A DNA stretch of 64,000 nucleotides, taken from IMG/VR virus record IMGVR_UViG_647000328_000003, positions 8,078 through 72,077 of that record. One strand, written 5' to 3'. The DNA comes from a virus. The position numbers and the translations under genes were made by a program. Of the stretch, positions 2,979-27,440 are shown in pieces. Each line of letters opens with the position of its first letter. The first letter of the stretch is position 1. The notes under the pieces were generated by a model. That model searched no databases. It had not been told where the DNA came from and saw only the letters and a program-made list of their open reading frames with translations.

Positions 2979-3172
2979 AGCCCCGACGCGAACACCGCCA
3001 GCGCGGCGAGCTCGGCACCCCACGCGAAACCGCAGCCGACCAATGGCTCGCCGCCATCCGCAACATCCCCGCAGCCCCCGACAACTGGGCCGGCACCGAC
3101 CTGGGCACCGCCAGACGCTGCGAAGACATCTGGAACGCACCCGCCAACAACGCCCGCGAGGAGGGCCGATGA
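2975..3172 (+). CDS. Small hypothetical protein
   Basis: GTGA overlap upstream and ATGA overlap downstream. Confidence 0.6.
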   Translation: MKPRREHRQRGELGTPRETAADQWLAAIRNIPAAPDNWAGTDLGTARRCEDIWNAPANNAREEGR

Positions 3173-4959: not shown

Positions 4960-5064
4960 TGCTACAGTCGAAGCACGCCGAGAGGCCGCGGAAACCAGCG
5001 GTCCCAAGGGCTTGGTTCCGTGCGCCGCAATCTGCGCGACACACCACACGAAGGGCGTCACTCG

Positions 5065-6477
5065 ATGACTCTCACGAACATCCGCACTCTCGCCGGGGAC
5101 ACCACCGACGGCTTCGCCGGAGCAGGCGGCTCCTCGGAGGGAGCACGACAGGCCGGTGTCACCGTGCGCACGGCGCTGAACCACTGGCGGCTCGCCGTTG
5201 ACGTCCACCAGGCCAACCACCCCGACACCGCCCACGACTGCGCCGACATCTCCCAGGTCGACCCGCGGCGCTACGCCACCACCACGTTCGCCTGGTTCTC
5301 CCCGTCCTGCACCAACCACTCCATCGCCCAGGGCAAGAAGCGCCACCAGGACGCCACCCCCGACCTGTTCGGCGAGATCCTCCCCGACGAAGCCGCGGAA
5401 CGGTCCCGGGCCACCATGTGGGACGTCATCCGTTTCGCCGAATTCCACGAGTACCGGGCGATCATCGTCGAGAACGTCGTCGACGCCCGCGAATGGATCC
5501 TCTGGCCCGCCTGGATCGCCGCGTTCCAGGCCCTCCGCTACCGGTTCAAGCTCGTCTGCCTCAACTCCATGCACGCCACCGCCCTCGGCGACGGCGCCCC
5601 CCAGTCCCGCGACCGCATGTACGTCGTCCTGTGGCGCGACGGCGAGAAGGAGCCGGACTTCGACAAGTGGCTGCGACCCACCGCCCACTGCACCAACTGC
5701 GACCGGGTCGTGCGGGCCGTTCAGGCGTGGAAGAACCCGCGGCGCCAGTACGGCAAGTACAAGACCCAGTACGCGTGGCGGTGCCCCACCGTCCGCTGCC
5801 ACGCCGAAGTGTTCCCCGCGGTCCGGCCGGCCTCCGACGCCATCGACTGGGCTCTGCCCGCACAGAGAATCGGCGACCGTGCCCGGCCGCTCGCCGAGAA
5901 GACCATGAAGCGCATCCGTGACGGCTTCACCGCCTACTCGAAGCCGCTCCTCGTCCCCGTCGAAGGGCGCGAGGGCAAGGTCGCCCGGCCCGCCGACCTC
6001 CCGATGCGGACGTGCACGGCACGCAACGAAACCGGCGTGACCGTCCCGCCGTACATGGTCGAACTCCGCGGCGGATCGTCGTCGCACCGGGCCGTATCCG
6101 AGCCGCTCGCCACCGTCTGCGCCTCCGGCAACCACCACGGCCTCGCCGTCCCCGACATGGTCGTCCCCTACTACGGCAACGCCAACGCCCGACCCACCAC
6201 CGAGCCGATCCCGACCGTCACCACCGTCGACCGCCACGGGCTCCTCGCAGGCGGCGTCGTCACCGCAGTCGAAGACCTCGGGTTCCGGATGCTGGAACCG
6301 GCCGAGTACGCCCGGGCCATGGAGTTCCCCACCTCCTACCTGTGGCTCGGCAACAAGCGCGAACGCGTCCGCATGGCCGGGAACGCCGTCACCCCGCCCG
6401 CCGCCCGCGACCTCTTCGCCATGGTCTCCGAAGCCATCCTCGGCACCTCCTACGAGCCGATCGGCGCCGCCGCGTGA
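5065..6477 (+). CDS. Orphan C5 cytosine DNA methyltransferase 1
   Basis: Motif I DGFAGAGG, catalytic SPSC, ENV, PQSRDR, motif X RMAGNAVTP. Confidence 0.92.
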   Translation: MTLTNIRTLAGDTTDGFAGAGGSSEGARQAGVTVRTALNHWRLAVDVHQANHPDTAHDCADISQVDPRRYATTTFAWFSPSCTNHSIAQGKKRHQDATPDLFGEILPDEAAERSRATMWDVIRFAEFHEYRAIIVENVVDAREWILWPAWIAAFQALRYRFKLVCLNSMHATALGDGAPQSRDRMYVVLWRDGEKEPDFDKWLRPTAHCTNCDRVVRAVQAWKNPRRQYGKYKTQYAWRCPTVRCHAEVFPAVRPASDAIDWALPAQRIGDRARPLAEKTMKRIRDGFTAYSKPLLVPVEGREGKVARPADLPMRTCTARNETGVTVPPYMVELRGGSSSHRAVSEPLATVCASGNHHGLAVPDMVVPYYGNANARPTTEPIPTVTTVDRHGLLAGGVVTAVEDLGFRMLEPAEYARAMEFPTSYLWLGNKRERVRMAGNAVTPPAARDLFAMVSEAILGTSYEPIGAAA

Positions 6478-6569: not shown

Positions 6570-7442
6570 GTGACCCTCGATGCCATGGACTGGGTTTGGA
6601 AGCACTCCCAGTCGAAGGGGAACACCCGCGTCGCGCTGCTGTACGTGGCGGACCAGGTGCGCACCTCTGCGGCAGAGGCACGTCTCGGCAGGCCGGAGCT
6701 CATGGCTGCCATGAACGCCACGAAAAACACCGTCCGAGACGCAATCGCGGACGCGTTGGAGCTTGGCGAACTGGAGATCGTGCAGCCGTCAGCTGGCCGT
6801 CGCGCGGCCCTGTATCGGCTTCCCGGGGCGGTTGGCTACTCCCGTAAGGGGTCAGATGTTGACCCTCTGGAGAACGGTAGAGGGTCAAAGGTTGACCCTC
6901 TACGGGGCGAGGACCCCTCCGGTAGAGGGTCAGATGTTGACCCTCTGGAATCCGTAGAGGGTCAAGTTTCGACCCCTAGAGGGTCAAAGGTTGACCCCCT
7001 TCCCCATCCCAGTAAAACGCTGGCTAGCAGCGAGCCGGAGAAGCTCGACGGGTTCCAGATCTGCCAGCCCCTCGTGCAGGCCATGACGGAAGCCGGCATC
7101 ACCGTCAGCTGGAGCATGAAGGCCGCTGACTGGTTGGACATCGCCACCGTCGTGCAGCGCGCTGGAGTTCCGGCCATGGTCGCGTTCGCTCGCGACGCCA
7201 AAGCAGCAGCGAAGCAGAAGCCTCGCTACGCCACCTTCTTCCTTCGCGGCGGATGGCGAGGACTGCCACCAGCAGCCAGCGTTCCCCCGCCCCGAGCCAC
7301 CCCTGCCGGAAAGCGCCCGCACTGCGGCCACCCGGACTGTGACCCGATCACCCGAACCCGCGAGATCGAAAACGACCGCAGACTCCGCAACCTCCACCCC
7401 TGCCCCGACTGCCACCCCACTGCGAAAGGCCAAGCCGCATGA
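6570..7442 (+). CDS. Phage replication initiator (N-terminal wHTH, internal iterons)
   Basis: N-terminal helical HTH region; central repeated GSxVDPL peptide encoded by DNA iterons; ATGA-coupled to dnaB (lambda O/P-like layout). Confidence 0.8.
   Translation: MTLDAMDWVWKHSQSKGNTRVALLYVADQVRTSAAEARLGRPELMAAMNATKNTVRDAIADALELGELEIVQPSAGRRAALYRLPGAVGYSRKGSDVDPLENGRGSKVDPLRGEDPSGRGSDVDPLESVEGQVSTPRGSKVDPLPHPSKTLASSEPEKLDGFQICQPLVQAMTEAGITVSWSMKAADWLDIATVVQRAGVPAMVAFARDAKAAAKQKPRYATFFLRGGWRGLPPAASVPPPRATPAGKRPHCGHPDCDPITRTREIENDRRLRNLHPCPDCHPTAKGQAA
6846..7000. repeat. Five ~23-bp palindromic iterons AGAGGGTCA-N4-TTGACCCTCT, probable lytic origin
   Basis: Copies at 6846-6868, 6879-6901, 6924-6946, 6956-6977 and 6978-7000. 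Confidence 0.85.
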
Positions 7443-8806
7443 CCGAGCCCTACTGGGAGCCCAACGTCGACAACCTCGACACCAGCGCCCCGCCGCACGA
7501 CCGCGACGCCGAAGCCGCCGCACTCGGCTCCATGCTCCTCAGCCTCAACGTCATCGACCCCATCGCCGCGGTCCTGTCCTCCGCCGAAGACTTCTACGTC
7601 CCCCAGCACCAGATCATCTACCGGGCCATCACCGACCTCTACAGCCGCACCCGCGACCCGAAGATCGACCCCATCACCGTCGGTGCGGAACTCCTCGCCA
7701 CCGGCGAACTCGGGAAGATCGGCGGCGCCCCCTACCTCCACACCCTCGTCGCGTCCGTCCCCACAGCCGCGAACGCCACCTACTACGCCGAGATCATCCG
7801 CGAACGCGCACAACTCCGAACCGTCCTCGAAGCAACCCGCCGCGCCACCCAGCGCGCCCTCACGGCCGCGCTGACCGCCCGAGAAATCCTCGACGCCGCG
7901 ATGGCCGACCTCCAGGCCGCCGCCACCGGCACCGCCACCACCAACGTGCGGCTCGCCGTCGCCGACCGATGGATGGGCTTCGTCGACGAACTCGAAGCCG
8001 GCACCGACCCGCGTGCCCTCGACACCCCCTGGACCGACCTCAACGACGTCATCGAGCTCAAGCCCGGCCAACTCATCACCGTCGGCGCCGCCACCGGAGG
8101 CGGCAAGTCACTCCTCGGCATGAACCTCGCCGCACACGTCGCCCTCACCCGCAGCAAGCCCGCCCTCGTCGCCTCCATGGAAATGGGCGGCAGTGAACTC
8201 ATGGCCCGCCTCACAGCCGCCGAAGCCGGGGTCGTCCTCGACCGGCTCGTCCGCCGCCAGCTCGAACCCGGCGACTGGGACCGCGTATTCAAAGCCGCAC
8301 CCCGGCTCCAGAACGCCCACAACTTCATCCTCGACGACTCCCCGAACCTCACCGTCGGGAAGATCCGGGCCCGCATGCGGTGGATGGCCGCCACCGGAAA
8401 CCCGCCCGCGATCGTCGTCGCCGACTACCTCCAGCTAATGACGCCCGAAAACAGCAAGCCCAACGCCAACCGGGCCAACGAAGTCGCCGAACTCTCCCGC
8501 GGCTTGAAGCTCCTCGCCATGGAGTTCGAGATCCCCGTCGTCGCTCTCGCCCAGTTCAACCGCGGCGCCGTCGGCCGCACCCCCCAGGTGTCCGACTTCA
8601 AAGACTCCTCCGCGATCGAGCAGGACTCCAACGTCATCGTCCTCATGCACCGCCCCCTCAACGACGACGGCACCCCCGACGACGACCGGGCCGGCGAAAT
8701 CGACCTCATCGTCGCGAAGAACCGCAACGGTGCCTCCGGGCGCATCGTCCCCCTCGTCTTCCAAGGCCACTACGCCCGACTCCGGTCCATGGGTCGCGGC
8801 ATCTAA
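7439..8806 (+). CDS. dnaB: Replicative DNA helicase
   Basis: N-terminal PPHDRDAEAAALGSML..EDFYVPQHQIIY; Walker A GAATGGGKS; VADYLQL; SSAIEQDSNVI; IVAKNRNG. Confidence 0.95.
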   Translation: MTEPYWEPNVDNLDTSAPPHDRDAEAAALGSMLLSLNVIDPIAAVLSSAEDFYVPQHQIIYRAITDLYSRTRDPKIDPITVGAELLATGELGKIGGAPYLHTLVASVPTAANATYYAEIIRERAQLRTVLEATRRATQRALTAALTAREILDAAMADLQAAATGTATTNVRLAVADRWMGFVDELEAGTDPRALDTPWTDLNDVIELKPGQLITVGAATGGGKSLLGMNLAAHVALTRSKPALVASMEMGGSELMARLTAAEAGVVLDRLVRRQLEPGDWDRVFKAAPRLQNAHNFILDDSPNLTVGKIRARMRWMAATGNPPAIVVADYLQLMTPENSKPNANRANEVAELSRGLKLLAMEFEIPVVALAQFNRGAVGRTPQVSDFKDSSAIEQDSNVIVLMHRPLNDDGTPDDDRAGEIDLIVAKNRNGASGRIVPLVFQGHYARLRSMGRGI

Positions 8807-8815
8807 GGAGCTGAC

Positions 8816-9562
8816 ATGCAGATTCAGGACGACTGGCGCAGCCACCCCATCGGCGAAGAGATCGTCACCGCCACCCACCAGCAGATCACCCGGGCCGGCC
8901 ACATCCCCGGCCAGCCCGGCGCGCTCGACGGCGACATGACCATCGAGGCACTCCCCACCTGGTACGGCGGCACCACGTTCAGGTCCGCCCTCGAAGCGTC
9001 CTGGGCCGCGACCCTCGACACTCTTCGCATCGCCTGGGAGTACGAGCCCGAGACCATCACCCTCCCGTCCGGCGCCACCTACATCCCCGACTTCAAGCTC
9101 CCCGAGATCGGGGCCTGGCTGGAGGTCAAGGGCACCGGCGTACCCCGAGTCGAAAAGCCCGTCGAGTTCGGCAAGTCGCTCTCCTGCGACTGCGGCATCT
9201 ACGACTGCGCCTGCCAGTGGCCCGGCGGCGAACTCGTCATCATCGGCCACCCGCCCCGGCCCTACGACCCCTGGGCCGACCCGCAGTTCGCCGACCTGGA
9301 AAACCTCAACTACCGGGCCATGGCCAACACCCGGCGGCGCCACGGCGGCCACCCCAACTGGACATCCACCCGCGGCCGGACCGCCTGGCTCACCCGGTGC
9401 GCTGACTGCAACCGCGGCACCTGGTTCGACTCCGCGCAGTGCCGTGCCTGCCGAGGCTCCCTCGCCGACTGCCACGGCTACCAGGCCGGCGACCCCGGCA
9501 TCGAGTTCCGGCGGATCACCGGGCCGAAACCCGCAGGTGACGACGATCCGGAGGCGGCGTGA
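8816..9562 (+). CDS. PD-(D/E)XK nuclease-like protein with C-terminal Cys motifs
   Basis: FRSALEASWA..WEYEP..YIPDF..WLEVKG catalytic pattern; GGAG RBS. Confidence 0.75.
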   Translation: MQIQDDWRSHPIGEEIVTATHQQITRAGHIPGQPGALDGDMTIEALPTWYGGTTFRSALEASWAATLDTLRIAWEYEPETITLPSGATYIPDFKLPEIGAWLEVKGTGVPRVEKPVEFGKSLSCDCGIYDCACQWPGGELVIIGHPPRPYDPWADPQFADLENLNYRAMANTRRRHGGHPNWTSTRGRTAWLTRCADCNRGTWFDSAQCRACRGSLADCHGYQAGDPGIEFRRITGPKPAGDDDPEAA

Positions 9563-9812
9563 TGCGCACGTTGAACCCCGACTCGCGGGGGACCGGTCTT
9601 GGAGCGGGGTGCGGGCGCGAGACCGCAGTACCCCCGTCGCGGCCCAGAACCGGGCCTCTCGCGGCCGAACAGGCGTCCAGCGCCCCGGAGCCCCGGCGGG
9701 GCGGAGAACGCCAGCGAGAGGCCCCGTCGCCCGCCTCGATTCCAGACGAACAGATTCCCGGGCAAACCGCCTTGGAACTCCGGCACATGCAACCGACCCT
9801 CTGGAGCCTCTG

Positions 9813-10787
9813 ATGACCTCACTCACCACCCCGACCGCGATCAGCCTGTGTTCGGGTGTCGGCGCCCTCGACAAGGCCGTCGAAAACCTGACGGGCGCGG
9901 CGACCGCCGTGTACGCGGAGAAGGACCCGTGGGCCGCCCAGGTGATGGCCGGCCTGCTGCCCGGGGTGGAGAACCTCGGCAGCATCGACGAGATCAACTA
10001 CGCGGACGTCGCCGCCACCTACCCGGACCTGGACACCCTGATCGCCGGGTGGCCGTGCCAGGGCATCAGCAACAACGGGCACCGCCTCGGCCTCGACGAC
10101 CCCCGGTCCGGGCTGTGGCGGAACGTCGCCCAGGCCATCGACGTGATCCGCCCGGCCGAGGTGTTCCTAGAGAACGTGGCCGCGTTGAAGCGCCGCGGCC
10201 TGGACGTGGTCGCCGACCACCTGAACCGGCTGGGCTACGACCTGTACTGGACGATCACCTACGCGTCCTCCGTGGGTGCCCCGACGGGCCGGCCCCGGTG
10301 GCTCGGCTACGCCGTGCCCGGCGCCGGAGTCACGGTCGAAGTCCCGGCCCCCGCGCCCACCGCCGAACCGGTCGCCCGCCTCCTCCCCACCCCGAAGGCG
10401 TCCGACGGCCCGAACGGCGGCCCGAACCAGCGCGACGGCCAGGGCAACTACTACCTCCCCGGTGTCGCCGTCCGCCTCGACGAACACTGGCGGGCACCCG
10501 AGCTGGGCCACGACTACGGCCCGGCGATCCACCGCTGGGAGGCCATTCTCGGCCGGCCCGCACCGGCGCCGACATCCCTGGACGCCCGGGGCAACCCGCG
10601 GGTCTGCCCGCGCTTCTACGAGTGGGTGATGGGCATCGGCGCCGGCGTCATCACCGATCACATGGACATGCCGCGCCCGCAGCAGATCAAGCGGGCCGGG
10701 AACAGCGTCGTGACGTTGCAGGCCGAGGTCGGATGCGCCGCCCTCCGGGCCGCGGCCCGCTCGCAGCTTCGTCTTATCGCCGCATGA
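9813..10787 (+). CDS. Orphan C5 cytosine DNA methyltransferase 2
   Basis: SLCSGVGALD, GWPCQGIS, FLENV, GAPTGRPR, motif X KRAGNSVV; GGAG RBS before ATG 9813. Confidence 0.92.
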   Translation: MTSLTTPTAISLCSGVGALDKAVENLTGAATAVYAEKDPWAAQVMAGLLPGVENLGSIDEINYADVAATYPDLDTLIAGWPCQGISNNGHRLGLDDPRSGLWRNVAQAIDVIRPAEVFLENVAALKRRGLDVVADHLNRLGYDLYWTITYASSVGAPTGRPRWLGYAVPGAGVTVEVPAPAPTAEPVARLLPTPKASDGPNGGPNQRDGQGNYYLPGVAVRLDEHWRAPELGHDYGPAIHRWEAILGRPAPAPTSLDARGNPRVCPRFYEWVMGIGAGVITDHMDMPRPQQIKRAGNSVVTLQAEVGCAALRAAARSQLRLIAA

Positions 10788-16295: not shown

Positions 16296-17081
16296 TCAGC
16301 GCGGGAACCGGGTCAGCCAGTCCGGCAACGGCTTCCCCTCCCGGGCGTAGTGCTGCAACGCGTACTGGTAGCTCAGAAGGTCCACCGCGCGCACCGAGTG
16401 CAGATCCTCCGGGGCCTCGCTCCCAAGCTGCGAAAGGGTCTTCTGCCGCTGCTTCCGGTAGATCCGTGGCCGCTTCCGCTCGAACTGCAACAGCAACCTG
16501 CGCAGCCGCCCGTCGTCGAGCTGGTTCGCCGCCTCGTACAACGCAACAAGCCGGCCCGCCGGCTGGCCCGCGCGAGCGCCAGCGAGTGCGGAGGAATGTT
16601 CTAGGCCTGCCTCTTCCCCGTCAGTCTTCTTGTTCGTCTTCTCGTCCGTCTTATGAGTACTTAGGGACTGGCTGGCCGTCTGCTGGTCGGCCGAGTGCTG
16701 CTCGACCGAGTACTGGTCGACCGAGTGCGGAAAACCCGTACTCGGCGCGACCCGCTCCAACGCCTCCGGGACAGCCGATACGTAGGTCGTCGTATCCCAC
16801 TGGCCACGCTGCCCCCGACGCCGCACATGAACGACGTACCCCTCACGCTCCAGCTCCCGCATCGCCATCTGGATCGCCTCACGACCCTCCGCGACGTAGC
16901 CCTCCCGCTTCGCCGTAGCGCTCCAGCCAGCGAGCTTGGCGACCGTGATGTCGTTGTTCGGCGGATAGCTCAACAGCTCCAACAACAAGCCCTTCGCCCG
17001 GAAACTGATCCGCCGGCTACGCGCCGCCTGGTTGTCGACACCGGTCCAGCCGGAGTCCGGAAGAACACGAATCACCCTCAC
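16296..17081 (-). CDS. Second replication-initiator-like wHTH protein
   Basis: ISFRAKGLLLELLS...EGREAIQMAMRELEREGYV...GQWDTTTYVS pattern of phage/plasmid Rep N-domains; central CG(A/G)CCGAGT repeats at approx. 16687-16727. Confidence 0.6.
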   Translation of the reverse strand: MRVIRVLPDSGWTGVDNQAARSRRISFRAKGLLLELLSYPPNNDITVAKLAGWSATAKREGYVAEGREAIQMAMRELEREGYVVHVRRRGQRGQWDTTTYVSAVPEALERVAPSTGFPHSVDQYSVEQHSADQQTASQSLSTHKTDEKTNKKTDGEEAGLEHSSALAGARAGQPAGRLVALYEAANQLDDGRLRRLLLQFERKRPRIYRKQRQKTLSQLGSEAPEDLHSVRAVDLLSYQYALQHYAREGKPLPDWLTRFPR

Positions 17082-17216
17082 GCCGACATCGCCCCTCGGC
17101 AGCGCACGTGGTTGGTCTGCAAACCCAAGGTCACTCCTGGAATGCGCGGGGCCCGCCCGCCGATCTGGAAACGGCCGGGCAACAGACGCTGCCCGGCCGT
17201 CGAGGAACCGCAGAGA

Positions 17217-17690
17217 TCAGGCGCCAGCCGAGGACTGAACCCCAGTAAGGGCCTCCTCGATCACACCCAGGAACTCGCCCGCCGCATCCTGCCGCCACGC
17301 CGTCGCGTGCAAGAACGCCTCCGCCAGCTCAGCGAACCCGTTCTTTTCGTTGGCGGCCTGCTCCAACGCCCTCGCCACCGCATACACCCGCCGCGACACC
17401 CGATGCCGCTCCACCACCGTTCGGGCGAACGCCAACACCTCGGCCAAGCTGTGATCCGGCGACGCCTCCAACACGAACCCGCCACGCTTGTTCCGGGAGA
17501 ACTGCAACATGGACTCCGTACCCGGCGTCGAGTTCAGGCGCAGGCTGATGCCGTGCTCCGCCGCGAACGCCCACAACGTCGCGCCGGCATCGGCGCGGGA
17601 GGTCGGGGCCGGCGGCTGCGGGGGAACCGGGGCCGACAACACCGGGGCGGGGGAGGGCAGCACCGACGACTTGTTTTCGGTTACGCTCAT
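17217..17690 (-). CDS. Hypothetical protein
   Basis: GGAAGAAGG upstream; plausible codon bias. Confidence 0.65.
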   Translation of the reverse strand: MSVTENKSSVLPSPAPVLSAPVPPQPPAPTSRADAGATLWAFAAEHGISLRLNSTPGTESMLQFSRNKRGGFVLEASPDHSLAEVLAFARTVVERHRVSRRVYAVARALEQAANEKNGFAELAEAFLHATAWRQDAAGEFLGVIEEALTGVQSSAGA

Positions 17691-17783: not shown

Positions 17784-18678
17784 GCGTGCCCGGGGAGATG
17801 ACCCGGGGTACTGCGAGCACCGGGTGATGAGACCGGCGTGGGATGAGACTAGATCGCGCCAAGAGGCGCTTCGGTTTTGGTGATCCGGAACCGGCTACGT
17901 CTCTCTTTGCAACCTTGACGGTTCCAACATGTTGGAAACCGCAGGTCAGGGGTTAAGTCCACTCTTTGGGGAAGTCGCTGACCTCCTAGTTTTTCACTTT
18001 GTCGGTGCCTGGATGGTTGTGTAATTGGATTTCGCTATGTAGCTTCATCGGCCCCCAAATCTGGCCGGAAGCAGATGGGCACCGCCGACCGGGAGCCACC
18101 TCAACGGCGCACTCCGAAGATCGGTACGCAGAAGAGGCTAGACCCGGCCACCCCGCCTCCCGCCTGAACTAAAGGTGAAGTAGACACCCCAACCTGCACC
18201 CAACCTGCTCATCCGAGCGCGAGCCGAAGGACACTTCGCAGGTCAGAGCGTGATCCCTCCGGACCGGCGCGCCCCTGACCTCGCACAACCCCTCAACACG
18301 AGGCTCATTTGTCGCCAGAAACGTTGCTTGCGCCTCCGTGAAACACCACAACCCAGGCACGACCGAGTTGGCCGGAAACCCCCACCACAACCCCCATCCG
18401 TTCGGCACGAGCCGACCATCACACACAACCGCAACCCCGTGCGGAGGAGGTGTGTATGAGGCGGCCGACCGCTGAGAGGAACCTAGACGGGGCGGTCGAG
18501 GGCGGCGTCGGAAACCGGCACCTCGCTTTTCTGGCGAAACGGACCCAAGGCCAGGTGGCAGGTAGGCTCGCAGCGAACTTGGGGTGCATCTAACGGGGCT
18601 TAGTGGTGCATAGAGCCCATGGATTCCCATTGCTGTACTATTCGGCCACTTGTCTGAAATTGGTTGGTGCCCTGTGGG

Positions 18679-19296
18679 TCAGGGCTGCACCTTGCGCATC
18701 AGTTCCTGGGCGAGTTCACGCAAGGCGCTGGGTGACATGTGGCGCGCCAAGAGGTCGGCAGCCTGCTGCGGTTGGTCCGCTGGGACTGCCACCTTTCGGT
18801 TGGCGTCCAGGTCACGAACGAAGATCCCTGCCCCCTGGCGGGATCGAATCAACTCCTCCGACTTGAGGGTCGCGAACGCCTGGCGCACGGTGCTCTCAGC
18901 CGACGCGTACTCCCGCATCAGCTGGTTCAGCCCAGGCAGTCGGGATCCAGGGGCGTACTCGCCGGAGAGGATCGCACGCCGAAGGTCGTCGGCGATGTCC
19001 TTGTAGCCGACTCGCTTCCCCGGGGGTGTCAGCTTGGCCACCTTCATCGCGTTGGCGCTCACGTTGTGACGTGGCTTCTCTCTTGCGATGGCTTCCTTCT
19101 CGGCTTCCTCAGCCAAAGCCGGCGAGTCGAGCCATGCGATCTCGTTGCGGTCAACCTCGGGCCACCATGACTTCGTTCGGCGGTGGGAGGCGAAGCGGTG
19201 CTGCGTGTCCTTCGTGATGCCGACGTACAGCAGGTTTCCGTCGGCGTCGTAGAAGCGGTAGAGCGCGGTGCGCTCGGAGGTGGGGTCGTTCGTCAC
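18679..19296 (-). CDS. GIY-YIG nuclease-GntR wHTH fusion
   Basis: ALYRFYDADGNLLYVGIT..R..H..AEEAEKEAIAREKPRHN, then YKDIADDLRRAILSGEYAPGSRLP..TVRQAF..IRSRQGAGIFV; GGAGG RBS before GTG 19296. Confidence 0.85.
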   Translation of the reverse strand: MTNDPTSERTALYRFYDADGNLLYVGITKDTQHRFASHRRTKSWWPEVDRNEIAWLDSPALAEEAEKEAIAREKPRHNVSANAMKVAKLTPPGKRVGYKDIADDLRRAILSGEYAPGSRLPGLNQLMREYASAESTVRQAFATLKSEELIRSRQGAGIFVRDLDANRKVAVPADQPQQAADLLARHMSPSALRELAQELMRKVQP

Positions 19297-19878: not shown

Positions 19879-20655
19879 GTGATGTCACCAAACCCCGCAC
19901 ACGAGCACCCCTTCAAGAGGGTGGCCAACGAACTGCGCACCGAGATCCTCCGAGGCGACCTCGCGCCCGGCGACCAGCTCTCGTCCGAGAACGAGCTGAA
20001 GGATCGCTTCGGCGTGACCCGGACCACGGTCCGTAAGGGCATCGCTCTGCTGCGGGCCGAAGGGCTCATCACCTCGAAGCAGGGCAAGGGGGCGTTCGTT
20101 CGTGAGCGCCCGCACGTCAATCTGAGGCAGACGGGCAGCATCTACCGCGCCCGTCGAGGTACGGGGAAGTCGAACTTCAACGCGGAAGCTGAAGCCCAGG
20201 GGCAGAAGCCGAAGCAGGTCATCCGGGAAGTGGTCGAGACGGCTGCCCCCGAGCGCGTCGCTCAACTGCTTGGGATCGAAACCGGGGCCCCGGTCGTGGC
20301 GCGGCGGTTCCTGTTCGTCACGGACGACACCCCGATGCAGCTGGTCGACTGCTACTACGACGCAAAGGTCGCTGGCGGCACGCGACTTGCGGAAGCCCGA
20401 CTGATCAAGGGTGGTGCCAACGCCTACATCGAAGACCCGGATGGGCCGATCGGTCGCCGCATCGTTCAGTTCATCGAGGACCTCGACGTTCGGATGCCGT
20501 ACCCGCACGAGGTGGATCAACTCGACATCCCCGACGGTGTACCGGTGGCCAGGGTGCTGCGCACGGCCTACGACTCGGCGGGCGACGCCATCGAGGTGCT
20601 CGATTCCATCGTCCCCTGCGATCGGCACGCCTTCCGCTACGTGATCGATGTGTAG
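19879..20655 (+). CDS. GntR/HutC-family repressor with UTRA domain (KorSA-like)
   Basis: LRTEILRGDLAPGDQLSSENELKDRFGVTRTTVRKGI..QGKGAFVR; C-terminal PVARVLRTAYD UTRA; precedes the tra operon. Confidence 0.9.
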   Translation: MMSPNPAHEHPFKRVANELRTEILRGDLAPGDQLSSENELKDRFGVTRTTVRKGIALLRAEGLITSKQGKGAFVRERPHVNLRQTGSIYRARRGTGKSNFNAEAEAQGQKPKQVIREVVETAAPERVAQLLGIETGAPVVARRFLFVTDDTPMQLVDCYYDAKVAGGTRLAEARLIKGGANAYIEDPDGPIGRRIVQFIEDLDVRMPYPHEVDQLDIPDGVPVARVLRTAYDSAGDAIEVLDSIVPCDRHAFRYVIDV

Positions 20656-20709: not shown

Positions 20710-20852
20710 GCTCCCGGCGACTCGCTCGAAGGCAAAACAGTCGCGGCACTTGCATAGCCAAGTTGGTTCGGCCTATCGTCAGGGGTGTCGCCACTTGCAT
20801 AGCCAAGTGGAACTGACTCCCCCTGCCCCTGCCCGAATCCGGAGGACCGCAC

Positions 20853-21104
20853 ATGTCTCCCCGCGACGCACTCGATGCAGTGCTCGACGACCTTCAGGAC
20901 TCCCTCACCGTCCCTGAGGTGGCCGCTCTCATCGGCGTCCACCCGGCGACGGTCTACCGAGCGGTCAAGACCGGCCGCATTCGCTCGACCAGCCGGGGGA
21001 GCGGGCAGATTCGCCGCACCCTCACCACCATCCCCCGCACGGCTGTCGTCGAGTTCCTCGCGACGCCCAACGGCCCCGCCTCCCCGTCGGAGGTGGCGGC
21101 ATGA
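20853..21104 (+). CDS. Excisionase-like (HTH_17/AlpA) DNA-binding protein
   Basis: LTVPEVAALIGVHPATVYRAVKTGRI; GGAGG RBS. Confidence 0.85.
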   Translation: MSPRDALDAVLDDLQDSLTVPEVAALIGVHPATVYRAVKTGRIRSTSRGSGQIRRTLTTIPRTAVVEFLATPNGPASPSEVAA

Positions 21105-23161: not shown

Positions 23162-24517
23162 ATGAGTGCCGACTACCGTTCCTGGGAGGAGCGTGAGGCC
23201 ACCGCCAAGAAGACCCGCGCCGAGGCGGCACGCATCGCCGCCGAAGCAGAAGCCGCCCGCACCGCTGGCGCCCAGGCCGCCGAAGCCGGGGCTGCGAAGA
23301 CCGCCACCGACCTCCTCGCCGAACAGGTCAAGCAGGCCGGGCTGAAGAAGAAGCTCGAAGCCGTCACCGAAGCCGCCAAGGACGAGAAGGCCGAACTCAA
23401 GGCCAGGCGCCGCGAGGCCAGCGCCGACAACGGCACCGCGTTCAAGCTCATCGTCAACGTCGCCGTCGTCCTCGGGCTCCTCGCCGCACTCCCCGCCCAG
23501 CTGTCGTACTTCCTCACCCTCCACAAGGAAGGCGAGAAGAATCCCAGCACCGCGTGGCTTCTCGGCCCGATCCCGTTCTTCCTGGAACTCCTCGCCTGGG
23601 TCGGTGTCCTCGGCACCCGGTGGGCGCACCGCAAGGGCCTGCCCCGGTGGCCGTTCTGGATCCTGACCGCCGCACTCGCCTCCGTCGCCGGGTACATCAA
23701 CCTGGCGCACGGCACCGACGAGTACGGCATCGTCGCCGGTGTCGCCCTGGCCGCCACCTCGGTCATCGGCCCGGTCCTTGCGGAGGTCCGGGACTTCCTC
23801 GAAGGCAGGGCCGCCGCCGACACCCGGAGCCTGGAGCAGCGGGCCGCCGCGAAGGCCGCAGCGAAGAAGCGGGCACGGGATCAGCGGGCGCTCGCGAAGG
23901 TCCACGCAACCGAGGACGAGCGGCGCAGGACGCTGTTCCCTCAGGAGTTCGCCGAGTACGAGCGGATCATCGTCGCGCACCCCACCGGAGCCATCACCCG
24001 GGAGGCCGCGTGGCAGCAGGCGTGGGACAACATCCACCTCCTGCCGCTCGCTACAACAGCGGACACGCTCGCCGGCCGCGAGGAAGCCCGCGCTGCGATC
24101 AACTCGGTTCTGTCGAACGTCGACCGCACCCCCGAGAGCGAAGCGGTCGACCGGCTCCTCGCCGAGATCTTTCGGCCCGACGGCGGTGACAGCGGACCCT
24201 CCCAGAAGCCCACAGAGGGCGGACCGAAGGATGGTGCAGGGGGAGGGTCGCAGGCCCGCCGCCCGGCCGACTCGAAGGGGCCTGGAGCCCTTGGGCGTAA
24301 AGGGAAGCAGGCATCCGGGCGCACCTCCGGAAAGACCCCGCTGAAGCCGCTCCAGCCGGATCACCTTGACGCGGTCCGCAAGCTCGCCGACGCCCTCGGC
24401 GGCCTCGAACGGCTGTCTGCCCGCAAGGTCCGCGAAGTCATCGGCGGCGGATCCAACGAGTACGCCGTCCGCCTTCGCGACGCAGTCCGCGCCGAAACAC
24501 AGGGAGACACCCAGTGA
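23162..24517 (+). CDS. SpdB2-like multi-pass membrane spread protein
   Basis: N-terminal coiled coil, four hydrophobic helices, C-terminal HTH-like LSARKVREVIGGGSNEYAVRLRD; stop overlaps traB start. Confidence 0.7.
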   Translation: MSADYRSWEEREATAKKTRAEAARIAAEAEAARTAGAQAAEAGAAKTATDLLAEQVKQAGLKKKLEAVTEAAKDEKAELKARRREASADNGTAFKLIVNVAVVLGLLAALPAQLSYFLTLHKEGEKNPSTAWLLGPIPFFLELLAWVGVLGTRWAHRKGLPRWPFWILTAALASVAGYINLAHGTDEYGIVAGVALAATSVIGPVLAEVRDFLEGRAAADTRSLEQRAAAKAAAKKRARDQRALAKVHATEDERRRTLFPQEFAEYERIIVAHPTGAITREAAWQQAWDNIHLLPLATTADTLAGREEARAAINSVLSNVDRTPESEAVDRLLAEIFRPDGGDSGPSQKPTEGGPKDGAGGGSQARRPADSKGPGALGRKGKQASGRTSGKTPLKPLQPDHLDAVRKLADALGGLERLSARKVREVIGGGSNEYAVRLRDAVRAETQGDTQ

Positions 24518-26727
24518 GCGTCGAGACCACCCCCGCCAGCACACCCGACCCGGAGTGGGAGCGGCTCATCGCCAGCCTTGCCGACAAGGCCGACAGCCCC
24601 CTCCTCCAGAAGACCGCGGATGTTCCCCACAACCGGCCGGACCTCCTCGGCGACATGCCCCTCACTCCGGAGTGGGCGCGCACCTCCGCCGGATGGCGAA
24701 CCCGCGCCGAGGTCGGGAAGCTCAACTCCACCCGGGCGTTCCGCCGGTGGGTGCGCCGGCAGTCCACCGAGCACGGGCACGGCGCCCAGGTCTTCCGCGG
24801 GATGTGCCGCACGTTCCTGTGGGTGCAGGGCACCGAAGGCGTCCAGGTCGCCACCGCACGGCATGAAGTGCGGCAGGCTCAGGACCGCTACAAAAGCGCG
24901 AAGTGGGGTCACGGCCTGCGGCTCATCCCCGGCAACGAGAAGGACAAGCTGCGCGCTGAGATGGATAAGGCGTTCGCCGGGTCCGTCACCGCGATGAGCA
25001 AGTACAGGTCTGCCCAGCGGGACGCCCGGACGCGGCGCGGGGCGCGAGGCGCCCTTGTCGCCGCTGCGATCGCCGTGCCGGAAGGGGCCGGGATCTATCT
25101 GATCGGCGGCGCTGGCGGTGTCATCGCGACCGGCTCCGCGCTCCTCGCGTTCGCCCTGATCGGTCGACGCACCAACGGCGGCGAGGTGTACACCGACCGG
25201 GACGCGAAGATCGGCAACGGCGACCGGATGACCGACGACATGATCGACCGGGCGTTCCGCGACGCCGGCATCATCCGCGGCGATCAGGCCGTCGTGTTCC
25301 GGTCCCCGGTCATCCAGGACGGGCGGGCGTGGCTCGCACACATCGAGGTCACCGGCGGCGTCGAAGTCGCAGACGTCCAGAAGAAATCCGGGCCCCTCGC
25401 CTCCGCGCTCGGCGTCCCCCGCCACCAGATGGACATCCGCCACGAAGGCCGCGAAGACCACCTCAGCCTGTGGGTCAGCATGACCGACCCGTTCGGCCGG
25501 ACCGTCCCCAACCCGCTGATCGGCACCACCGACAAGGTCAACGCCTGGCGTGACGGGCTCCCATTGGGCTTCGACAAGCGCGGCAGCATCGTCCTCGCCA
25601 CCATCTCCGACTACTCGCTGCTCGTCGGCGGTACCACCCGGTCCGGGAAGGGCATGGCCGTCGCGAACATTCTCGTCGGCGCCATGCTCGACCCTCGCAT
25701 CCGAGTCAGGCTGTTCGACGGGAAGGGCACCGGCGAGTACGTCGGCCTTGCGCCCGCCCTCGACACGTTCGTCCGCCGCAACCCCGAACGGCTCCTCCAG
25801 TTCCTCAAGGTGCTGGTCGGCGAACTGGAACGCCGCACCGAGATCCTCGTCGACCTGGGGGTGTCCAAGGCCACCGAGGAACTCCTGGAGCAGCTCGGCG
25901 GCATCGAGCTCGTCATCGTCGACGAGCTCGCCACCTACACCGTCAAGGGCGGCCTCAACGGCCAGCACGCCGAAGAGATCGTCGAACTCCTCGCCCAGAT
26001 CGCCGCCGTCGGTGCCGCCGTCGGGATTGTCCTCGTCCTCGCCACCCAGTACCCGAAGGTCGACGTCGTCCCCTCCCGGCTCCGCGGCAACTGTGCGGCC
26101 CGGTGGGCGATGCGAGTGGACTCCACGACCGCGTCGAACGTCATCCTCGGCGACGGTGCAGCCGACGACGGCTACAACGCCCGCAAGATCGAAAACAGCA
26201 AGTCGACCCGCGGGCGCGGCATGCTCACCACCCCCGACACCGGATTCATCGACTCCCGCAGCCTCTTCGTCGACGTCGAGAACGGCGACCTCGGGAAGGC
26301 CGCCAAAGCAGGCATGGCGCTGCGCCAGGCCATAAGCCGGCTGCCCCTGCACTGCCCGGACCCGATCGAAGACCAGCTCAAGGCAGACACCGGAATCAGC
26401 ATGGTCGCCGGCGGACCCACCGGAAAGGGCACCGCAGTCCAGGCCGAGGCGGAGCCCACGATCCTCGACCACATCGTCAAGGCCGTCACCGCCACCGGCC
26501 GCGGCGAAGCGACCCGCGGCGAGGTCTTCGCCCACCTGGCCACCGTCGACGAGCGATACGAGCGGGGCGACACGGAAAGCGACGCCCAGTACGGGTCGCG
26601 GGCCGGGAAGCTCCTGTCCGCCGACCTGGACGCCGAAGAGGTCGAGCTGAAGGCCGTGAAGGTGTCGACCGCGGACGGCGGGGAGGGTCGCGGGTTCAAG
26701 CTCGCCGCCCTCCACGCCGCCCTATAG
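24514..26727 (+). CDS. traB: FtsK/SpoIIIE-family conjugative DNA translocase (Streptomyces TraB)
   Basis: Two TM helices, Walker A GGTTRSGKG, Walker B LVIVDELA, LVLATQYP, C-terminal helical domain. Confidence 0.9.
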   Translation: MSVETTPASTPDPEWERLIASLADKADSPLLQKTADVPHNRPDLLGDMPLTPEWARTSAGWRTRAEVGKLNSTRAFRRWVRRQSTEHGHGAQVFRGMCRTFLWVQGTEGVQVATARHEVRQAQDRYKSAKWGHGLRLIPGNEKDKLRAEMDKAFAGSVTAMSKYRSAQRDARTRRGARGALVAAAIAVPEGAGIYLIGGAGGVIATGSALLAFALIGRRTNGGEVYTDRDAKIGNGDRMTDDMIDRAFRDAGIIRGDQAVVFRSPVIQDGRAWLAHIEVTGGVEVADVQKKSGPLASALGVPRHQMDIRHEGREDHLSLWVSMTDPFGRTVPNPLIGTTDKVNAWRDGLPLGFDKRGSIVLATISDYSLLVGGTTRSGKGMAVANILVGAMLDPRIRVRLFDGKGTGEYVGLAPALDTFVRRNPERLLQFLKVLVGELERRTEILVDLGVSKATEELLEQLGGIELVIVDELATYTVKGGLNGQHAEEIVELLAQIAAVGAAVGIVLVLATQYPKVDVVPSRLRGNCAARWAMRVDSTTASNVILGDGAADDGYNARKIENSKSTRGRGMLTTPDTGFIDSRSLFVDVENGDLGKAAKAGMALRQAISRLPLHCPDPIEDQLKADTGISMVAGGPTGKGTAVQAEAEPTILDHIVKAVTATGRGEATRGEVFAHLATVDERYERGDTESDAQYGSRAGKLLSADLDAEEVELKAVKVSTADGGEGRGFKLAALHAAL

Positions 26728-26738
26728 ATCACATTTGC

Positions 26739-26922
26739 ACCCTGCCCCGACCCTGCCCGGCCGTTCATCACCGCAGGTCAGCCCATCGGCCACCCTGCCC
26801 CGACCCTGCCCCGCGCGGGCAGGGTCGCCCCGGCCCGGAACCGCACCCAGCTCGTTCAGGCAGGGTGTGGGCAGGGTCGCCACCTGCGGAAACGCCACCG
26901 CTGGACACGGTTCAGGCAGGGT
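26739..26922. repeat. clt-like locus: eight ACCCTGCC 8-mers (4 forward, 4 reverse)
   Basis: Forward at 26739, 26750, 26792, 26803; reverse at 26818, 26859, 26870, 26915; three pairs spaced 11 bp; directly downstream of traB. Confidence 0.85.
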
Positions 26923-26957
26923 CCAACGCCCCCGTACTCACTTCGAAGGAGCCCCTC

Positions 26958-27440
26958 ATGCAGCTGCCCGAGCAGCCCGTCGCCGGGCAGCCCGACACCA
27001 CCATCCGCCGCAACGCCGACCAGCTCGTGGTCGCCGTCGACGAAGCCCTCTTCGCCGGCCAGGTCACCTCGTACCGCGACAACACCCCGCTCCCCGCGGT
27101 CGGCCCCAACCCGCCCGTCCAGCAGCCCGGCCCGCCCCCGATGTCGCAGTGGGCGATCGACGCGAGCGGGGTCCTGAAGGCCGTGTCCGTGGCGTCCCTG
27201 CCGATCGGCGGCGCCCTGTGGATCGTCGGCCAGATCGAACCGTGGGCCCTCGGCATCATCCTCGGCTCGCCAGCCGTCGCAGCCCTCGCCGTCGCCCGGC
27301 TGGTCGCGAAGGTCAAGGACGCCAACCAGGCCGCCCCGCAGCCGGTTGTGCAGCACTTCCACGGCACCGTCCACCACGACGAGCGCACCGTCACCAGCAC
27401 CACCCGCGGCGTCATCGCGAAGACCCAGAACCGGAACTAA
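26958..27440 (+). CDS. Spd-like membrane protein
   Basis: GAAGGAG RBS; two TM helices; C-terminal VVQHFHGTVHHDERTV..TRG. Confidence 0.7.
   Translation: MQLPEQPVAGQPDTTIRRNADQLVVAVDEALFAGQVTSYRDNTPLPAVGPNPPVQQPGPPPMSQWAIDASGVLKAVSVASLPIGGALWIVGQIEPWALGIILGSPAVAALAVARLVAKVKDANQAAPQPVVQHFHGTVHHDERTVTSTTRGVIAKTQNRN

Follow-up and report, generated by a model that had tools for sequence, protein, structure and literature searches.

A strand-switched repeat array downstream of traB as a candidate clt with a new word in a phage-plasmid-like element

The traB gene and the array downstream of it

The window analyzed here, i.e., 64,000 nucleotides of a 78,895-bp IMG/VR virus record, contains a traB gene (24514–26727, + strand) for a membrane-anchored, FtsK/SpoIIIE-type dsDNA translocase of 737 amino acids. 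The gene product matches Pfam FtsK_SpoIIIE (1e-9) and shares 32% sequence identity with TraB of the Streptomyces venezuelae plasmid pSVH1 over residues 43–624 (582 residues, E 2e-59). It has a Walker A motif (GTTRSGKG), a Walker B motif (LVIVDEL) and a hydrophobic N-terminal segment at about residues 180–217. The NCBIfam models plasmid_TraB and FtsK gave partial matches to the 737-residue product, far under their cut-offs.

We modeled the C-terminal residues 650–737 (26461–26724, + strand) with AlphaFold2 from an alignment of 11 sequences. This domain is predicted with high confidence to be a winged helix (pLDDT 89–95, topology H-b-H-H-b-b), with a putative recognition helix at residues 690–707 that includes YGSRAGKLLSADL, and a β-hairpin wing at residues 715–729. 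The top PDB matches of the model were all winged-helix DNA binders, with Z between 4 and 5.4. Neither structure comparisons with Foldseek and VIA-align nor a profile search against PDB sequences retrieved the FtsK γ domain for the TraB C-terminus. We hence rejected it as a structural match, as generic winged helices alone were found, and the two domains may still be homologous.

Twelve nucleotides 3′ of the traB stop codon (26725–26727) begins a repeat array, which occupies the 230-bp gap (26728–26957, our candidate clt) up to the next gene (RBS GAAGGAG, ATG at 26958). The original prediction had placed eight exact copies of ACCCTGCC directly after traB, four on the + strand and then four on the − strand, with three pairs spaced by 11 bp, and all of them were found. 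The left arm (26739–26810) carries the + copies at 26739, 26750, 26792 and 26803, i.e., in two doublets, and the right arm (26818–26922) the − copies at 26818, 26859, 26870 and 26915. The start-to-start distance is 11 bp in 26739/26750, 26792/26803 and 26859/26870; from the center outward, spacings are 11/42/11 bp on the left and 41/11/45 bp on the right. A perfect 4+/4− segregation of strands has a chance probability of 2/70. In its longer form, the word reads (G/C)ACCCTGCC(C), and its innermost + and − copies form a central palindrome (26801–26827) with 11-bp arms and a spacer of 5 nt.

In the window, ACCCTGCC occurred 12 times compared with 3.9 ± 1.9 expected copies, and none of 100 shuffled sequences gave 12. 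Counting word orientation in the element and in a host chromosome, as had been proposed with the original prediction, we found 12 copies in the entire record as well, eight in the cluster and four outside. As the window already holds all 12, the four copies beyond the cluster are at chance level. The 8-Mb genome of Streptomyces parvus, which contains a related element, has 512 copies (249 on the + and 263 on the − strand), i.e., one per 15.6 kb, and the density of the cluster (8 per 184 bp) exceeds this background about 680-fold. We also looked for clt-like clusters in a host chromosome; there was no evidence for many of them in S. parvus JCM 4069, where close direct pairs of ACCCTGCC were present only in the clt of the element and in one other place.

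Repeat words and TraB C-termini in related loci

Similarity searches with TraB yielded 15 loci (L001–L015) from one plasmid, eight genome contigs and six IMG/VR contigs, and three of these IMG/VR contigs are 78–81 kb in size. To these we added pSVH1 and, at a greater distance, four TraB plasmids (L025–L028). All 19 relatives, pSVH1 included, have a gap of 172–265 bp behind traB. Words on one strand and then on the other were found in 16 of the 19, with at least nine different words; in L015, L026 and L028 the words were too weak or ambiguous to judge the layout. ACCCTGCC is the word of the window, L002, L010 and L011. The other words are CCCTGGAC in L003, GCCTGGAC in L004, CCCCGGAC in L001, GGGTGCGC in L005–L007, CCGTGAT in L012 and L014, GCGTGAT in L013, GACCTGGA in pFP11 (L027), and CCCGGACG, which contains CCCGGA of pSVH1, in L008 and L009. 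In the literature searched, no paper connected ACCCTGCC with conjugation.

Among the four loci with ACCCTGCC, 60 of 64 word columns (94%) were invariant compared with 69 of 114 spacer columns (61%; Fisher p 5.5e-7), and all four positions of the left arm are retained in L011, L002 and L010. In pSVH1, L003, L008 and L012, the local word can likewise be seen to form a central palindrome equivalent to that of the window. Moreover, copies on the same strand are phased at 10.75 bp. Over 10 loci, the mean resultant was 0.92, compared with 0.45 ± 0.05 and a maximum of 0.62 for random positions. The words of each arm are thus located on one face of the duplex.

Between the left doublets lies a box, CCGCAGGTCA (26771–26780, + strand), that is unchanged in the window, L011, L002 and L010. 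The right arm contains its inverted partner ACCTGCGG (26882–26889, given on the + strand), which reads TGACCTGC in other lineages and in pSVH1. Box columns were invariant (20 of 20) among the four ACCCTGCC loci, and C(C/G)CAGGTCA was retained in spite of other words in L001, L005, L006, L008, L009, L012, L013 and L015; pSVH1 has the right box only. The box is hence kept whatever the word, and a lineage-specific reader does not explain CAGGTCA/TGACCTG. A second, conserved factor probably uses the box. We also considered the box as sps, the site of SpdA, which is the 12-bp palindrome CGTCACGTGACG (PMC4170104). This was rejected, as the sequences differ and sps had no match in the window at up to one mismatch.

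C(C/G)CAGGTCA occurs eight times in the window, always on the + strand, compared with 1.85 expected copies. The copies at 17940–17948 and 18237–18245 lie in a gene-poor stretch, each with TGACCTC about 45 nt after it, and three copies of the box in non-coding DNA have the form CGCAGGTCAG.

The cleanest example of the layout is the locus at 3127–3340 of L025, a circular Kitasatospora sp. NBC_01246 plasmid of 79,098 bp. Here, five copies of GGTGTCCG on the + strand are followed by four on the − strand, with doublets of 11–12 bp and the box in between. In size, this replicon nearly equals the 78,895-bp record.

Clusters of the last 88 TraB residues coincided exactly with the classes of repeat words. 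C-terminal identity was 84–97% inside the ACCCTGCC group and at most 55% to all others; it was 65% between L003 and L004, 73–90% within L005–L007 and 74% between L013 and L012, and the C-terminal domains of L008 and L009 are 49% identical to that of pSVH1. Between groups, identity ranged from 16 to 55%. The N-terminal 610 residues are 75–88% identical among L002–L007 and L010–L014, i.e., across word classes, and we therefore conclude that the divergence of TraB is concentrated in its C-terminal domain.

Mosaic relatives helped to separate TraB from its neighbors. The DNA of the window and that of L015 are 93–94% identical in both flanks, and this identity is broken from 25243 to 26943. The block replaced hence comprises the 3′ two-thirds of traB and the whole gap, i.e., gene and site were exchanged as one block and the array travels with traB. 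The downstream gene (26958–27440, + strand; 160 residues, no Pfam or NCBIfam match) is not the reader of the repeats, as its product is 92% identical in L015 and 70% identical in L008, both of which have other words. The upstream gene, which overlaps the traB start (23162–24517, + strand; 451 residues, weak MFS match), is not the reader either, and in L002 it is replaced while the word ACCCTGCC is unchanged. This gene sits where relatives have SpdB2/DUF2637 genes; its product had no significant similarity to pSVH1 SpdB2 (E 0.03). Two other neighboring genes, orf22169 and orf22519, are 84–90% and 70–90% identical, respectively, in L009 and L015 and do not follow the word, either. Of all genes in a range of 4 kb, TraB alone changes in step with the word across the mosaic relatives.

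From these comparisons, a specificity of the word for the C-terminus of its cognate TraB appears well supported. The co-variation of word and C-terminus is partly confounded with shared descent, a concern that the mosaic cases lessen. The original prediction had proposed ACCCTGCC as a new recognition word of TraB, and the comparative evidence agrees with this, as the word is lineage-specific and changes along with the C-terminal domain.

DNA homology to the mosaic relatives breaks or resumes at 26933–26947, and the right edge of the candidate clt resembles a border between modules or a site of recombination. An extra gene is inserted at the same place in L010 and L011.

The array as a probable clt and alternative explanations

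TraB of pSVH1 is reported to recognize GACCCGGA repeats, the TraB recognition sequences (TRS), via helix α3 of its C-terminal wHTH (PMC3583192, PMC5133688, PMC4447253). We located exact GACCCGGA copies in pSVH1 on the + strand at 8158, 8180, 8212 and 8233 and on the − strand at 8249, together with further degenerate − copies. The pSVH1 clt, which has been defined by experiment, resembles the array in several respects. It fills a gap of 228 bp directly after traB, compared with 230 bp here, and in both, + copies are followed by a central palindrome and then by − copies. Also, the TGACCTGC box and a phasing of 11/21/22 bp are found there. Placed in the pSVH1 register, the word reads (G/C)ACCCTGC and has six of its eight letters in common with GACCCGGA. 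The original prediction of a clt-type array beside a real TraB homologue is thus supported by comparison, as both position and layout match.

The two sites differ in the word, which is GACCCGGA in pSVH1 and (G/C)ACCCTGCC here, and in the TraB C-terminal domain, which is of a longer type here and has no detectable similarity to that of pSVH1. In addition, a second box, CCGCAGGTCA, is present in the left arm of our array. In contrast to pSVH1, a 12.7-kb rolling-circle plasmid, the element here has about 79 kb and is phage-plasmid-like.

The clt sites of pWTY27 (TraA), pJV1 and pIJ101 also consist of short words repeated beside a tra gene, with inverted repeats, and TraA footprints on the repeats of pWTY27 (PMC3583192). 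Their words, i.e., TGACACC/CCCGCCC, CCGCACA[C/G][C/G] and GC/AAAC, and their copy numbers differ from those found here. In the literature consulted, clt words are described as direct repeats, and inverted repeats are noted for pIJ101, pJV1 and pWTY27 (PMC4447253, PMC3583192). The original prediction had set the mirror-symmetric layout of the array against clt repeats that are usually direct. The mirror layout itself was found, and the contrast with known clt sites did not hold up: pSVH1 and 15 of the other 18 relatives show the strand switch as well, so the mirror layout is the norm of the family and not a property of this locus.

We consider it very likely that the eight words are a clt, where the neighboring TraB grips its own element. 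This reading is based on the match to pSVH1, on the co-variation with the TraB C-terminus and on the co-inheritance with traB. The array is real, selected and linked to TraB, and it is best read as a clt with a new, lineage-specific word that is a close variant of the pSVH1 TRS. How TraB and clt work in general has been described before; what is new here is the word.

In such a clt, the eight (G/C)ACCCTGCC(C) words would be read by the winged-helix domains at the C-terminus of TraB, whose gene lies just upstream. Copies of the same arm are located on one helix face, which would suit cooperative binding by a multimer, and the two arms face each other, an orientation also seen in pSVH1. Hexamers of TraB that assemble on the array could then pump the element through the membrane, and the clt would be needed in cis for this transfer.

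The mirrored arms may further load TraB in both directions, as suggested with the original prediction, and thus be a loading site for two motors. Elaborated as a conserved site, one TraB hexamer per arm would load in opposite orientation, both duplex arms of the uncut circular element would be pumped simultaneously and the clt center would enter the recipient first, as the tip of a loop, with the CAGGTCA/TGACCTG box as a shared assembly or bending element. This arrangement is rather doubtful in our view. Its polarity fits the array, as the ACCCTGCC arms point outward from the dyad when they are read as FtsK reads KOPS. If true, two-motor loading would bear on the problem of moving a covalently closed circle with a ring-shaped motor, and back-to-back loading of two motors is now directly testable.

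It is improbable that the array is bound by a protein other than TraB, e.g., a GntR-type repressor, a Spd-type protein or a partition or stability protein, and acts on the genes downstream as an operator or a centromere-like site. A promoter of these genes probably lies within the gap, and two GntR-domain proteins are encoded 6–8 kb upstream. A promoter scan of the gap gave no match. Moreover, the box inside the array is unrelated to the word and is found again outside coding sequence at 17940 and 18237, and a second factor hence probably binds the array, too. However, the putative GntR operators (20747 and 20792) have another palindrome, CACTTGCATAGCCAAGTG, the SpdA site sps is missing from the window, traB itself was exchanged along with the array, and of the genes within 4 kb it is TraB alone that follows the word across the mosaic relatives. 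For a comparison with replication-origin iterons, which lie next to a rep gene and are specific for it, we looked for rep-family genes within 4 kb of the array and saw none.

An even less probable explanation puts nucleic acid structure first. The inverted words would then form a DNA hairpin or cruciform, or a structure at the 3′ end of the traB transcript or in the leader of the downstream transcript, and would be conserved as stems. A single strand of the gap indeed folds to −61.2 kcal mol−1 (z −5.3 compared with shuffled sequences), the gap of pSVH1 gave z −3.5, and the central palindrome is found in several lineages, with both arms changing together when the word changes. Such a strong fold is, however, an automatic consequence of inverted copies of one word, and base-pairing does not need the same word in every stem. 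Furthermore, the arms are unequal (11/42/11 on the left, 41/11/45 on the right; 5 + and 3 − copies in pSVH1), single mutated copies occur in L002, L010 and L011 without a compensating change in the partner, and a helical phasing of same-strand copies characterizes sites on duplex DNA. We found no intrinsic terminator with a T-run in 26400–27100, where the central palindrome is followed by CGCCCCGG, and no Rfam match in the gap. The extrusion of a cruciform, suggested with the original prediction, is not supported, as nothing apart from the fold (z −5.3) speaks in its favor.

That the array imitates KOPS of the host, with the host's own FtsK as the reader, can practically be dismissed: GGGCAGGG, the complement of the word, is contained on the opposite strand of six of the eight copies, occurs 21 times in the window compared with 7.2 expected copies and is a KOPS variant recognized by FtsK of E. 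coli, V. cholerae and P. aeruginosa (PMC3384302), but elements of the same genus use unrelated words (GGTGCGC, CGTGAT, CCGGAC), which a conserved host reader cannot explain, GGGCAGGG outside the array has an inconsistent polarity (9 of 10 copies on the − strand to the left, 2 + and 3 − to the right), and ACCCTGCC is spread over both strands of the host genome (249 + vs. 263 −). An element-wide polarity of ACCCTGCC or GGGCAGGG was likewise rejected, as no consistent pattern was seen along the element. The strand skew of GGGCAGGG on the left side may be explained by coding-strand bias. We know of no Streptomyces KOPS.

Apart from this, FtsK γ with KOPS (GGGNAGGG) and SpoIIIE with SRS are like the system proposed here in that an 8-bp polar word is read by the C-terminal winged helix of an FtsK-family motor, which in our case is a predicted one. 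FtsK readers and KOPS words also co-evolve (PMC3384302). In contrast to KOPS, which are spread over the chromosome and converge on dif, the words here are packed into one site of 184 bp and have no element-wide polarity.

With the array read as a clt, the TraB winged helix and (G/C)ACCCTGCC are a predicted pair of reader and word among closely related pumps with differing words. These related pumps would be a natural experiment on how TraB-type winged helices choose DNA. The strand switch, the phasing on one face and the invariant box are features of clt sites family-wide, pSVH1 included. Moreover, with such a site the phage-plasmid-like element can probably pass between hyphae as naked dsDNA.

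The surrounding element

Upstream of traB, the window contains genes for a GntR/UTRA repressor (19879–20655) and an HTH_17 protein (20853–21104), small ORFs and the gene for the 451-residue protein. Two copies of the palindrome-like sequence CACTTGCATAGCCAAGTG (20747–20764 and 20792–20809) lie between the GntR/UTRA and HTH_17 genes, where they are likely to be operators through which the tra operon is repressed. Directly ahead of the first gene in this operon, two overlapping near-words form CCCTGCCCCTGCCC (20820–20834). We considered this as a second TraB site at the tra-operon promoter and rejected it; the sequence is missing from three relatives with the same word and hence probably occurs by chance. 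ORFs at 16296–17690 had no Pfam match. On the − strand, 18679–19296 encodes a fusion protein with a GIY-YIG nuclease motif at the N-terminus and a GntR DNA-binding domain (Pfam).

The same record carries a full siphovirus structural and lysis module (41564–63341). It encodes capsid and head proteins, a tail tube protein, a tape measure protein of 2087 residues with M23 and SLT domains, Dit, a Gp37-like protein, two GDPD tail proteins and an amidase. The nearest relatives of the capsid protein (68–72% identity) are encoded on Streptomyces plasmids of 88–93 kb. Taken together with this module, the capsid relatives on plasmids make the element look like a phage-plasmid of the pZL12/pSLE1 kind. 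The Streptomyces plasmid-phage pZL12 and its relative pSLE1 are like the element in being phage-like replicons of similar size with plasmid functions; pSLE1 is described as a phage-like replicon of 86 kb with plasmid functions (PMC4487206). At the other end of the window, two genes for C5 cytosine methyltransferases (5020–6477 and 9444–10787) flank a gene for a DnaB-type helicase (7439–8806).
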